Of a DNA stretch of 64,000 bases, positions 2,298-15,361 are shown piece after piece; position 1 is the first letter of the stretch, and each line of letters begins with the position of its first letter. Below the pieces are notes generated by a model. It did not search any database. It had not been told where the DNA came from and saw only the letters and a program-made list of their open reading frames with translations. The position numbers and the translations under genes were made by a program. The stretch is from Escherichia coli (lineage in GTDB: Bacteria > Pseudomonadota > Gammaproteobacteria > Enterobacterales > Enterobacteriaceae), in the NCBI RefSeq assembly GCF_003334335.1, contig NZ_QOWQ01000022.1. One strand, written 5' to 3'.

Positions 2298-3053
2298 CGA
2301 ACCTTTTAGCCACTGCCAGATACGGCCAAGCGTTTCATAGCCAACACGATCGCTATGCATCAACCAGACCGGAGAAGGGATTGCCCGTTCCCACGGGTTA
2401 AGCGGCGAGTCGATGGCCAACTGATTCGCCGGGGCTGGTAGCGGATTTAACCCTTCCTGCTGAAAAAAGATCATCGCCCGCGGCAGATGTGATGCGGAGG
2501 TCACCAGCAGGAAAGGGGCGTCACCAATCGCCTGTTTCACTGCTGCAGCTTCTTCTTCGGTATCTTTTGGCAAATCCAGGGTGATAATTTGCTCGCGCGG
2601 CACGCCCAGCGATTGCGCAACTCTGGCACCTACTTCCGCTGTACTCACCGTATTGGTTTTTGCTACGCCTCCCGTGAAGATCAGTTTTGATCCCGGATTT
2701 TCGCGCCATAAGCGAATACCTTCATTCAGGCGTGGCAGACTGTTATTGATTAAATTAGAGCTCGGTGCCCACTGCGGGTTCCAGGTATAACCACCTCCGA
2801 GCACCACGATATAGTCCACTTTTTGCGAATTATTCCATGTCGGATAGGTGCTTTCGATGGGACGCAGCAGGCGGTCGGCTACCGGTTGCAAACTCAATAA
2901 CAAGAGCGCCAGCCACCCAATGCTAATAAAAATCTTCCCGGTTTTTTGAAAACGGCTAAACCACAGCAGCGCCAGGCCAGCGCCAATAATCAACAACATC
3001 AGCGGAAGTGGCAGCAACATATTGCCAATCACTTTTTTCAGTGTAAAAAGCAT
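2274..3053 (-). CDS. elyC: envelope biogenesis factor ElyC (YcbC, DUF218 family)
   Basis: 259 aa ORF with N-terminal transmembrane segment; conserved position. Confidence 0.88.
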   Translation of the reverse strand: MLFTLKKVIGNMLLPLPLMLLIIGAGLALLWFSRFQKTGKIFISIGWLALLLLSLQPVADRLLRPIESTYPTWNNSQKVDYIVVLGGGYTWNPQWAPSSNLINNSLPRLNEGIRLWRENPGSKLIFTGGVAKTNTVSTAEVGARVAQSLGVPREQIITLDLPKDTEEEAAAVKQAIGDAPFLLVTSASHLPRAMIFFQQEGLNPLPAPANQLAIDSPLNPWERAIPSPVWLMHSDRVGYETLGRIWQWLKGSSGEPRQE

Positions 3054-3188
3054 CCTTTCTGGTTCCTTTTTTAACCATATAGCAAGGGATCGCCAGCGAT
3101 ATTACACCAGACGGGTTCATTCTCGCCGTGGCTGTGACAAAATAGCGTCTTTATCAGAAAACGTCTTAGCCAACCGGTGGAGAAAGCA

Positions 3189-3974
3189 ATGCAGGATCGC
3201 AATTTTGATGATATTGCGGAAAAGTTTTCCCGTAACATTTACGGCACCACCAAAGGGCAGCTTCGACAGGCTATTCTGTGGCAGGATCTCGATCGCGTGC
3301 TGGCGGAAATGGGCCCGCAAAAACTGCGTGTGCTGGATGCTGGCGGTGGAGAAGGGCAGACCGCAATCAAAATGGCCGAGCGTGGGCATCAGGTCATTTT
3401 ATGCGATCTTTCTGCGCAGATGATCGACCGCGCAAAACAGGCGGCAGAAGCAAAAGGTGTGAGCGACAACATGCAATTTATACATTGCGCCGCTCAGGAT
3501 GTTGCTTCGCATTTGGAAACGCCCGTTGATCTGATATTGTTCCATGCGGTGCTCGAGTGGGTGGCTGATCCCCGCAGCGTATTGCAGACCCTGTGGTCAG
3601 TGTTGCGTCCAGGCGGCGTGTTGTCGTTAATGTTCTACAATGCGCATGGTTTGTTGATGCATAACATGGTCGCCGGGAATTTTGATTACGTGCAGGCGGG
3701 AATGCCGAAAAAGAAAAAACGGACGCTTTCGCCAGATTATCCACGCGACCCGGCGCAGGTTTATCTGTGGCTGGAAGAAGCTGGTTGGCAAATTATGGGT
3801 AAGACAGGCGTTCGCGTGTTTCATGATTATCTGCGCGAGAAACACCAGCAGCGCGACTGCTATGAAGCATTACTTGAATTAGAAACGCGTTATTGCCGTC
3901 AGGAACCGTATATTACCCTGGGGCGTTATATTCATGTCACCGCGCGCAAACCGCAGAGCAAGGATAAAGTATGA
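3189..3974 (+). CDS. cmoM: SAM-dependent methyltransferase CmoM (formerly SmtA), tRNA cmo5U methyl ester formation
   Basis: ORF 3177..3974; start moved to second ATG (MQDRNFDD) to match known 261 aa protein; SAM motif LDAGGGEG; stop overlaps mukF start. Confidence 0.9.
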
Positions 3975-13301: not shown

Positions 13302-13949
13302 ATGAACTATCGTATTATTCCGGTCACCGCATTCTCCCAGAACTGTTCATTAATCTGGTGTGAACAAACCCGTCTGGCCGCACTGGTCGATCCTGGCGGC
13401 GATGCGGAAAAAATCAAACAGGAAGTTGATGACAGCGGCCTGACACTGATGCAGATCCTGCTGACGCATGGTCATCTGGACCACGTTGGCGCAGCGGCGG
13501 AACTGGCGCAACATTACGGCGTGCCGGTTTTCGGCCCGGAAAAAGAAGATGAGTTCTGGCTGCAAGGCTTGCCTGCGCAAAGTCGTATGTTTGGTCTGGA
13601 AGAGTGCCAGCCGCTGACGCCAGATCGTTGGCTGAACGAAGGCGATACCATCAGCATAGGGAATGTGACTTTACAGGTGTTACATTGCCCTGGGCATACG
13701 CCGGGTCATGTCGTGTTTTTTGATGATCGGGCAAAGCTGCTGATTTCTGGCGATGTTATTTTCAAAGGCGGAGTAGGGCGCAGTGACTTCCCGCGTGGCG
13801 ATCATAATCAACTGATTTCTTCAATCAAAGATAAATTGCTGCCACTGGGGGATGACGTGATATTTATTCCGGGTCACGGACCATTATCCACACTTGGTTA
13901 TGAACGCCTGCATAATCCCTTCCTGCAAGACGAAATGCCCGTCTGGTAA
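13302..13949 (+). CDS. gloC: metallo-beta-lactamase fold hydrolase GloC (YcbL), hydroxyacylglutathione hydrolase
   Basis: 215 aa ORF with HxHxDH motif (THGHLDHVG). Confidence 0.9.
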
Positions 13950-13956
13950 GGCACAT

Positions 13957-13983
13957 AAAAAAGCCCGCTTTTAATGCGGGCCT
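13957..13983 (-). terminator. hairpin GCCCGC-loop-GCGGGC with U-run on minus strand; candidate distal aspC terminator
   Basis: Inverted repeat at 13962-13981 preceded on plus strand by A6. Confidence 0.4.
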
Positions 13984-14012
13984 GGATTTCTGGCAAAGTG
14001 CGCTTTGTTTAT

Positions 14013-14112
14013 GCCGGATGCGGCACGAGCGCCTTATCCGGCCTACAAAATCGTGCAAATTCAAAATATTGCAGGGGACGCGTAGGCCTGATAAGCGTAG
14101 CGCATCAGGCAA
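14013..14112. repeat. REP/BIME element (two inverted REP copies) between gloC and aspC
   Basis: gccggatgcggcacgagcgccttatccggcctaca and inverted copy gtaggcctgataagcgtagcgcatcaggca match the REP consensus. Confidence 0.8.
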
Positions 14113-14133
14113 TGTTGCGTTTGTCATCAGTCT

Positions 14134-14166
14134 CAGCCCGCTTTTCAGCGGGCTTCATTGTTTTTA
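14134..14166 (+). terminator. hairpin AGCCCGC-TTTTC-AGCGGGCT followed by T-rich tract
   Basis: Inverted repeat just upstream of aspC stop; T-rich tail on plus strand. Confidence 0.4.
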
Positions 14167-14170
14167 ATGC

Positions 14171-15361
14171 TTACAGCACTGCCACAATCGCTTCGCACAG
14201 CGGAGCCATGTTATCTGGTGTCATCCCGGCCACATTTACGCGACCAGAAGCAACCGCATATACGCCAAACTCTTCGCGCAGACGCAGCACTTGTTCTTTT
14301 GTCAGGCCACTGAAGGAGAACATGCCGTTCTGTTTGATGATAAAGCTGAAGTCGCGGTTTGCGCCTTTTTCCTGCAGCGTATTGACGAACAACTGACGCA
14401 TACGCTGAATACGCTGGCGCATATCAGTCAGCTCTTGTTCCCAAATCGCACGTAACGCATCGTTGCTCAGGATGGTGGCAACAACAGAAGCGCCGTGTGC
14501 TGGTGGGTTAGAGTAGTTAGCGCGAATCGCCGCTTTCATTTGGCTGAATGCGCGATCAACGGTTTCACTGTCGGCAGCAACCAGAGTACAAGCGCCAACA
14601 CGCTCGTTGTACAGGCCAAAGTTTTTAGAGTAGGAACTGGCAACAATCAGCTCTTTATGCATAGCCGCGAAAGCGCGCAGTCCTTCAGCATCTTCTTCCA
14701 GACCACGGGCAAAACCCTGGTAAGCGAAGTCAAACAGCGGTAACCAGCCTTTCTCAACGGAGAGTTGTGCCAGTGTTTGCCATTGTTCCAGCGTAGGGTC
14801 GATACCGGTTGGGTTATGGCAGCAGCCATGGAACAGCACTACGTCGCCAGCCTGAGCTTCATTCAGGCTGTTAATCAGTGCATCGAAGTCAAGAGTGTGA
14901 TTTTCCGCATCATAATAAGCGTATTCACGAACTTCCAGACCTGCAGAGTTAAAGACGCTCTTATGGTTCGGCCAGCTTGGGTTGCTCACCCACACACGCT
15001 TAACGCTGGTATTTTTTGCCAGGAAATCGGCAGCCACGCGTAGTGCGCCAGTGCCCCCCGGAGTCTGTGCCGTGCGAGCACGTTTGTCATTGATCAGGGC
15101 GCTACCTTTACCAAACAGCAGTTCCTGAGTGCAGCGACCAAATTCAGGGATGCCGTCAATGCCGAGGTAATTTTTGGTGGTTTCATTTTCGAGCAGATAC
15201 TGTTCAGCCTTTTTCACGCTGGTCAGTACCGGGGTTTTGCCCGTCTCATCTTTATAGACACCAATCCCGAGGTTAATTTTGCCGGGACGTTCATCGGCAC
15301 GAAACAGATCGGCCAGGCCCAGAATCGGGTCGGCAGGAGCGGCGGTAATGTTCTCAAACAT
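14171..15361 (-). CDS. aspC: aspartate aminotransferase
   Basis: 396 aa [42 protein letters not shown]-lysine motif SYSKNFGLY. Confidence 0.97.

Follow-up and report, generated by a model that had tools for sequence, protein, structure and literature searches.

Two inverted REPs between the convergent genes gloC and aspC of Escherichia coli are bracketed by two GC-rich hairpins, and the U-run of each hairpin belongs to the strand of whichever gene lies farther away. This layout raises the question of how such a spacer arose and where the two convergent transcripts end, an earlier note on the same DNA having proposed that each of them reads through the REP pair before terminating. In the window analysed here (a stretch of 64,000 nt from contig NZ_QOWQ01000022.1, assembly GCF_003334335.1), ldtD, mepK and gloC are encoded on the + strand and are followed by aspC and ompF on the − strand, with a 221-nt spacer (13950-14170) separating gloC from aspC. 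This spacer differs from K-12 MG1655 positions 984298-984518 (window coordinate = MG1655 coordinate − 970348) by a single base, a G→T change at window 13978 (MG1655 984326), so that the left hairpin stem reads gcGggc in the window and gcTggc in MG1655. The RefSeq annotation of MG1655 lists no repeat features at this region. The features of the spacer and its flanking genes are collected in Table 1.

Table 1. Features of the gloC-aspC spacer and flanking genes, in window coordinates.
Feature	Position	Strand	Basis and remarks
gloC (ycbL) CDS	13302-13949	+	Stop TAA at 13947-13949; ORF list and annotation in matching E. coli genomes
A6 run	13957-13962	.	U-tract for the aspC-sense (−) strand; presumed left half of the ancestral bidirectional terminator
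Left stem-loop copy AGCCCGCTTTTAATGCGGGCC	13962-13982	.	− strand terminator-like hairpin 13983-13961, then UUUUUUAU
Inserted BIME-1 unit, 152 nt	13983-14134	+	TG + 146-nt core GATTT...CATCAG + TCTC; absent as a block in O157:H7 and other E. coli
Left outer motif GATTTCTGGCAAAGTGCGCTTTGTTTAT	13985-14012	+	Imperfect inverted repeat of the right outer motif; paralogue alignment, fold
Y-type REP (palindromic unit) GCCGGATGCGGCACGAGCGCCTTATCCGGCCTAC	14013-14046	+	Hairpin, −19.5 kcal/mol
L linker	14047-14081	+	IHF-consensus-like site ATTCAAAATATTG at 14059-14071; Rfam match, motif search
Z1-type REP GTAGGCCTGATAAGCGTAGCGCATCAGGCA	14082-14111	-	Inverted relative to the Y REP; sequence, paralogue alignment
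Right outer motif ATGTTGCGTTTGTCATCAGTCTC	14112-14134	+	Paralogue alignment
Right stem-loop copy AGCCCGCTTTTCAGCGGGCT	14135-14154	.	Both convergent 3′ ends map here in MG1655
T-rich tail TCATTGTTTTT	14155-14165	+	U-tract for the gloC-sense (+) strand; presumed right half of the ancestral terminator
aspC CDS	14171-15361	-	ORF list and annotation in matching E. coli genomes

Judged by its sequence, the element in the spacer is an ordinary BIME-1, a repeat of an already catalogued kind at a known place. BIME-1 has been defined as a y and a z1 REP with a long conserved L linker that contains an IHF site, present in single copy (PMC3333891), and its size has been given as about 140 bp (PMC1187871); the spacer holds an inverted Y and Z1 pair, an IHF-like linker and one 152-nt unit between convergent stop codons. 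The unit boundaries were set by alignment to paralogues at fepA-entD, satP-mog and asnB-nagD and to 120 metagenomic loci found via the right-end motif. Full-length paralogues of the inner 152 nt, including those at the three named E. coli sites, share 85-91% identity with it (E ~1e-35 to 1e-46), and across the family the unit is constant, consisting of a 146-nt core that runs from GATTG to CATCAG, 2 nt on its left and TCTC on its right. Across five copies the Z1 REP is invariant and the Y REP almost invariant, the window copy departing at 2-3 positions of the loop, and the arms of the two REPs are 81-93% complementary to one another. Terminal inverted repeats are present as well, since the outer motifs (RAGAYTG...) pair across the whole unit, which folds end to end into a single long hairpin of −57.7 kcal/mol in a local fold.

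Within the linker, positions 14047-14089 match the Rfam model RF02751 (ES036) at 53 bits, above its gathering score of 37.6 (E 7e-10), the stretch TGCAAATTCAAAATATTGCAG at 14054-14074 is one position off the family linker motif, for which window shuffles gave an expectation of 0 matches, and the putative IHF site, a sequence motif only, fits the consensus WATCAANNNNTTR with one mismatch. The paralogues at 85-91% identity, the above-gathering linker match and the 0 shuffled motif matches together argue that the BIME-1 assignment is not a chance match. The inverted REPs that the earlier note had placed at 14013-14047 and 14083-14112 lie within 1 nt of the positions found here, and its reading of the region as a BIME is upheld by the inverted Y and Z1 REPs, the IHF-like linker and the full-length E. 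coli paralogues. Beyond ES036, the Rfam scan of the spacer returned only a sub-threshold naRNA4 (REP-like) match and a spurious Trp-leader match, with no evidence of a distinct sRNA. The RF02751 model itself (ES036/CssrF, described as an 'sRNA') appears to match the repeated BIME-1 linker and not a unique gene. As a separate observation, the Z1 REP of this spacer in E. coli JB2 is interrupted by IS621, an IS110-family element of ~1.28 kb (positions 1088-2366 of the extracted locus); the junction corresponds to window 14085/14086, between GTAG and GCCTGATAAG, and fits the known REP targeting of that IS family.

The two GC hairpins that had been described as bracketing the REP pair were recovered by terminator scan and folding (left, 13961-13983; right, 14135-14154), as were the strands of the U-runs, which in both cases are those of the gene farther off, aspC-sense for the left hairpin and gloC-sense for the right. 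The scan found an 8-bp stem at 14135-14154 on the + strand, followed by the tail TCATTGTTTT, and an 8-bp stem at 13983-13961 on the − strand, followed by TTTTATGTGC. Local folds gave −15.2 kcal/mol for the right hairpin on the + strand, followed by UCAUUGUUUUU, and −14.1 kcal/mol on the − strand for the left hairpin, whose stem arms at 13963-13968 and 13976-13981 extend to 13961-13983 and whose tail is given in Table 1. Few U residues are found in the tails of the opposite strands (CUGGAUUUCUGG for the left hairpin on +, GAGACUGAUGAC for the right hairpin on −). The layout of an intrinsic terminator, a GC stem-loop followed by a U-tract, is thus present in the right hairpin on + and in the left hairpin on −, and is absent from the right hairpin on − (tail GAGACUGAUG) and from the left hairpin on +. 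The two stem-loop copies share an 11-nt exact direct repeat, AGCCCGCTTTT (14135-14145 in the right copy). A fold of the whole spacer in which both hairpin copies pair with each other (−93.9 kcal/mol) was considered as a functional structure and set aside as a by-product of the palindrome duplication.

The G→T change in MG1655 breaks the stem of the left copy (−8.3 vs −14.1 kcal/mol). Among the strains listed, it was seen in those of the K-12 laboratory lineage (MG1655, EMG2, C600) and in 98234. The form of the window itself, with an intact left stem, is found in 2,637 of 5,426 complete E. coli genomes, and in Escherichia albertii the left stem is mutated as well. K-12 3′-end maps may under-report use of the left hairpin, the stem being broken there.

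Many of the 5,426 complete E. coli genomes lack a block of 171 nt at this spacer. The O157:H7 empty allele consists of a 50-nt spacer, aaaaaaGCCCGCttttcaGCGGGCttcattgttttt, in which an A-run, one stem-loop and a T-run follow each other, and which has the sequence of a classic bidirectional terminator. Spacers of 42-60 nt with such a single A-run/hairpin/T-run terminator are found in roughly 41-48% of E. coli genomes and in ~60 enterobacterial genera; the A-run that precedes the left hairpin of the window also precedes the single hairpin of the O157 allele and of these genera. The filled allele is present in ~2,800-3,200 of the 5,426 genomes, or roughly 52-59%, where the inner 152 nt at an identity of at least 95% gave 2,812 records and the left junction was found in 3,186 genomes.

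In order to establish the ancestral state, outgroup loci were collected by a scan with GloC, with one genome per species, which yielded 80 loci, in 78 of which both genes could be placed. The spacer measures 42-109 nt in 65 of these 78 species loci, and a single hairpin lies between A- and T-rich runs in every one of the 65 except Escherichia sp. ESNIH1, in which REP-like hairpins fill the spacer. The single hairpin across outgroups indicates that a single two-way terminator was the ancestral state. The insertion is present in E. albertii and in the divergent E. coli E69 too, and it is orthologous, since the outer motif, the linker and the Y loop carry the same unusual substitutions in all three. 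The BIME core of E. coli shares 94% identity with that of E. albertii, and ~97% over the stretch bounded by the Y REP and the right hairpin, and at third codon positions the two species share only 68% identity in gloC and 76% in aspC; the greater likeness of the core than of the flanking codons possibly reflects constraint, homogenisation, or transfer or recombination.

Other genera offer further variants of this spacer. Single or paired species-specific REPs adjoin the same terminator, with no hairpin duplication, in Citrobacter (L010, L012, L028, L031), Lelliottia, Leclercia and Escherichia sp. ESNIH1, so that the spacer is a recurrent REP landing site across genera. Enterobacteriaceae bacterium LSJC7 has a 342-nt spacer with a (CCAGAG)x8 microsatellite and an extra upstream hairpin, unlike the short spacer of other genera.

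From these comparisons we consider it probable that BIME-1 inserted at an ancestral bidirectional terminator and duplicated its stem-loop, with the right copy now serving as the operative 3′ end in K-12. On this account one bidirectional intrinsic terminator, made of an A-run, a GC stem-loop and a T-run, would first have served both gloC and aspC, and within the Escherichia lineage the 152-nt BIME-1 would have entered that stem-loop and duplicated it in its entirety (~21 nt). The product would be an A-run, hairpin copy 1, BIME-1, hairpin copy 2 and a T-run; with the A-run outside the left copy and the T-run outside the right one, each hairpin would keep a U-run in the sense of the distal gene only, as is seen in the window.

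Published MG1655 data bear on where the transcripts end. A bidirectional terminator (entry #69, ycbK:ycbL:aspC) is listed at 984478-984506, where the convergent 3′ ends overlap, in both log and stationary phase in Table 16 of bioRxiv 10.64898/2026.03.23.713779, one of 306 experimentally defined bidirectional terminators listed there for E. coli. This interval corresponds to window 14130-14158, the right hairpin. The source of that table, the preprint's reference 47, is presumably Ju et al. 2019, a SEnd-seq study. Term-seq places the 'primary' aspC 3′ end at 984479(−) with a score of 26,604 (Adams et al. 2021, PMC7815308, supplementary file 1), that is at window 14131, 4 nt beyond the near (right) hairpin with a GAGA tail, and Table 16 agrees independently with this position. 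At the far (left) hairpin, whose stem is mutated in MG1655, neither MG1655 map lists a 3′ end. Rho-termination regions at 984273(−) and 984537(+) (PMC7815308) indicate some read-through on both strands. All of these data come from MG1655, with its mutated left hairpin, and not from the strain type of the window.

The MG1655 data fit a gloC-sense RNA that ends at the right copy after reading through the left one and through the BIME. The gloC mRNA in K-12 carries the BIME within a 3′ UTR of ~205 nt, and the aspC 3′ UTR in K-12 is short, ~40 nt, ending at a hairpin without a U-tract. Of the proposed read-through of the REPs by both transcripts, the gloC half stands, its end lying beyond the BIME (984478-984506), and the aspC half does not, its end at 984479(−) being at the near hairpin. 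The 3′-end mapping that the earlier note had named as a check, read from the published MG1655 maps, divides in the same way, with gloC ending past the REPs and the dominant aspC end short of them. Since aspC mainly ends before the REPs, putative REP-mediated stabilisation can concern the gloC mRNA only. The aspC end at 14131 could reflect non-canonical termination or a trimming of longer transcripts back to the hairpin; trimming is plausible because the BIME RNA would be a long duplex. In the strain type of the window the left copy is predicted to be a canonical terminator for aspC-sense read-through, and strains of this type, with their intact left stem, could use the left hairpin more than MG1655 does. 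We infer that the left copy acts as a back-up terminator for such read-through and shields gloC from antisense transcription. Its mutation in K-12 and E. albertii makes it look dispensable.

The same data weigh on a functional interpretation of the layout, in which both convergent transcripts read through the REPs to the far hairpins and the whole is a unit whose REPs stabilise both mRNAs. The position of the U-runs on the strands of the distal genes, the gloC-strand 3′ end beyond the BIME, the aspC-sense transcription that in part spans the whole spacer (Rho region 984273(−)) and the intact left hairpin of the 2,637 genomes are all in keeping with such a unit. We nevertheless consider it improbable, because two independent data sets place the dominant MG1655 aspC end 4 nt beyond the near hairpin, the far hairpin has no listed 3′ end in the MG1655 maps, the mutated left stems of K-12 and E. 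albertii suggest that this hairpin can be dispensed with, and an insertion history accounts for the layout without design.

Hairpin duplication around BIME-1 was found at up to seven further E. coli sites, six of them clear and one decayed; five of the seven have empty alleles, four of these with one matching hairpin. At arcC-yqeB the filled allele holds two identical 28-nt hairpins around a 152-nt unit and the empty alleles hold one. At satP-mog the filled allele (strain MS20677) has two copies, and K-12 is empty with one hairpin (terminator entry #1), while ymdF-rutG has two hairpin copies when filled and one when empty. Two copies each surround BIME-1 at mscK-rsmS and mgtA-ridA, both copies are present at a separate metagenomic site (L169), and at barA-gudD the second copy has decayed. 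Locus L153 represents the same site as L169 and has lost its left copy through a small deletion, and erosion therefore explains at least some single-hairpin BIME-1 sites. About half of the BIME-1 sites examined have one flanking hairpin or none, which indicates that duplication is non-obligatory or often erased.

Local alignment of left against right flanks gave scores of 12-28 at duplicated sites, compared with a mismatched-pair null whose mean was 6.3-6.4 and whose maximum was 13-17. The duplications measure 20, 21, 25 and 28 nt, close to the length of the hairpin and roughly foot to foot; their boundaries are 1-4 nt away from the stem feet at some sites, which counts against the insertion account that we prefer. 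Among 19 parsed sites, a GC hairpin starts 2-6 nt past CATCAG in 15 and one ends 0-5 nt before GATTG in nine. The possibility that the hairpin is part of the element itself was discarded, as the flanking hairpins vary by site and match the local empty allele. A 9-nt repeat, TTTTAATGC (at 13969 and 14162), was likewise rejected as a breakpoint, since O157 has TTTTAACGC there and other sites have no equivalent.

The same spacer was also targeted in another genus. In Pseudocitrobacter, BIME-1 lies between gloC and aspC in the opposite orientation and a hairpin of that genus, GGCCGCGAAAGCGGCC, is duplicated around it, and a sister species has an empty site; the insertion is independent of the E. 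coli one. Taken together, the sequence comparisons show an insertion/deletion polymorphism, a single-hairpin ancestral state, and recurrence at other sites and in another genus.

These observations allow the reverse order of events to be weighed, in which the long two-hairpin allele came first, the short alleles arose by deletion between direct repeats, and the duplication was unrelated to BIME insertion. The O157-type empty allele combines the left flank of the filled allele with exactly the right-copy loop, TTTTCA, as a deletion via the 11-nt direct repeat would leave it, and E. albertii is also filled. That allele may be a secondary precise deletion through the repeat and not a progenitor. 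As a general origin, long-allele-first is very improbable: the single-hairpin state occurs in ~60 genera, the E. coli empty alleles, each with one hairpin, comprise at least four loop variants with differing flanks, and identical duplications also surround BIME-1 in Pseudocitrobacter and at unrelated E. coli sites, where the duplicated hairpin in each case agrees with the single one of its own locus. Deletion may account for some empty alleles, but not for the origin of the architecture.

Several further observations concern the element and its targets. Entomohabitans teleogrylli and Tenebrionibacter intestinalis carry gloC-aspC inserts of ~140-150 nt with BIME-1-like termini (AGATTGATGGC.../...GCTTTGTCAGCAG; ...GCTTTGTCATCATTCTGA) and no E. 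coli-type REPs. The E. teleogrylli insert has a central sequence motif that is a perfect IHF consensus, AATCAATTTATTG, and lies between copies of the local terminator hairpin that are duplicated perfectly over 25 nt; the hairpins that flank the T. intestinalis insert share a stem and differ in the loop. The sequences of these two inserts hint that the outer termini, rather than the REPs, define the mobile unit. Separately, the K-12 bidirectional terminators #35, #79, #229 and #353 abut a BIME-1 end and have a one-sided U-tract, as at gloC-aspC, and it may be general for 3′ ends on the BIME side to lack a U-tract. In E. coli SJ7 a different insert of ~500 nt at mgtA-ridA replaces the BIME-1 present in most strains; it contains a 151-aa ORF annotated as 'transposase', with an HTH-like N-terminus and a hydrophobic tail.

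As to how an insertion could duplicate a whole stem-loop, the element may integrate across the base of a stem-loop or cruciform that has been extruded. If each strand were nicked at one of the two feet, the stagger would be as long as the palindrome, which gap repair would go on to duplicate; with foot-to-foot nicking the duplication would be about as long as the hairpin. As a generalisation, we put forward, tentatively and with somewhat less than even confidence, that BIME-1 and non-REP elements with the same termini integrate across the bases of terminator stem-loops and duplicate the entire stem-loop, the palindrome setting the length. A point against the insertion account preferred here is that the RAYT/IS200-type enzymes usually proposed for REP mobility make no large target duplications (PMC2817692).

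A real duplication could also have come about through replication template switching, in which the polymerase, having copied the hairpin, switches to a BIME-1 elsewhere, re-enters at the other foot of the folded template hairpin and copies the hairpin a second time. In favour of this route, the duplication length follows the hairpin, the two feet of a folded hairpin are spatially adjacent, and no transposase is known to make duplications of 20-28 nt. We regard it as doubtful while granting it some weight, as the constant ends and length of the element (146-nt core, 152 nt with NN and TCTC) are more typical of cut-and-join, and no microhomology is evident between BIME ends and targets at the cleanest junctions (arcC-yqeB, ymdF-rutG).

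Compared with known systems, the element agrees with BIME-1 (RIB/RIP) in composition, order, inverted orientation, size, L linker, extragenic 3′ location and presence/absence polymorphism among strains, and is itself no different. In the BIME, REP and REPIN literature covered here, which leaves out the BIME papers of the 1990s, no description was found of target or terminator duplication or of flanks formed by a duplicated local terminator stem-loop. The right hairpin is a catalogued bidirectional intrinsic terminator (entry #69) and the empty allele has the textbook A-run/stem-loop/U-run form; the terminator of the window differs in being split, its operative copy having a U-tract on one side, yet both 3′ ends lie there. 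The feature is thus already known as a catalogued E. coli repeat beside a catalogued terminator, and the stem-loop duplication is the aspect worth pursuing.

Like MITEs, BIME-1 is a short non-coding element with terminal inverted repeats and a long hairpin fold; direct repeats of target sequence lie on either side of it, and it occurs at filled and empty sites, with target duplication and one-copy empty sites at gloC-aspC, arcC-yqeB, ymdF-rutG, satP-mog and in Pseudocitrobacter. MITE duplications are fixed at 2-10 bp, however, whereas those of BIME-1 are 20-28 nt and approximate the length of the target hairpin; REPs are described in the REP literature as lacking MITE signatures. With REPIN/RAYT systems, in which REP doublets are moved by an IS200-like Y1 transposase, BIME-1 shares an inverted REP doublet, the fold into one hairpin, vertical persistence and rare gain or loss, but IS200/IS605-type transposition proceeds without large target duplication and the BIME-1 unit extends to conserved outer motifs. 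In CRISPR spacer integration by Cas1-Cas2 with IHF, a partly palindromic repeat of ~28 nt is attacked in a staggered manner at its two borders, and gap repair then leaves the whole repeat in duplicate. That system is unrelated and would serve only as an analogy for whole-palindrome duplication around inserted DNA.

The insertion mechanism of REPs and BIMEs is still called unknown (bioRxiv 10.64898/2026.03.23.713779), and the hairpin-length duplications at filled and empty pairs constitute a specific footprint of BIME insertion that may be a clue to mechanism; if the generalisation put forward above is true, it would be a first concrete footprint of this kind. BIME-1 would then split bidirectional terminators into two one-way halves and restore them on excision. 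Such an insertion would rewire 3′ ends with the coding sequence untouched, giving roughly 52-59% of E. coli genomes a ~205-nt, REP-containing gloC 3′ UTR and leaving aspC in the same genomes to end at a hairpin without a U-tract. Several K-12 'bidirectional terminator' hairpins would likewise be the one surviving copy of a split pair, which bears on the occurrence of 3′ ends that lack a U-tract.
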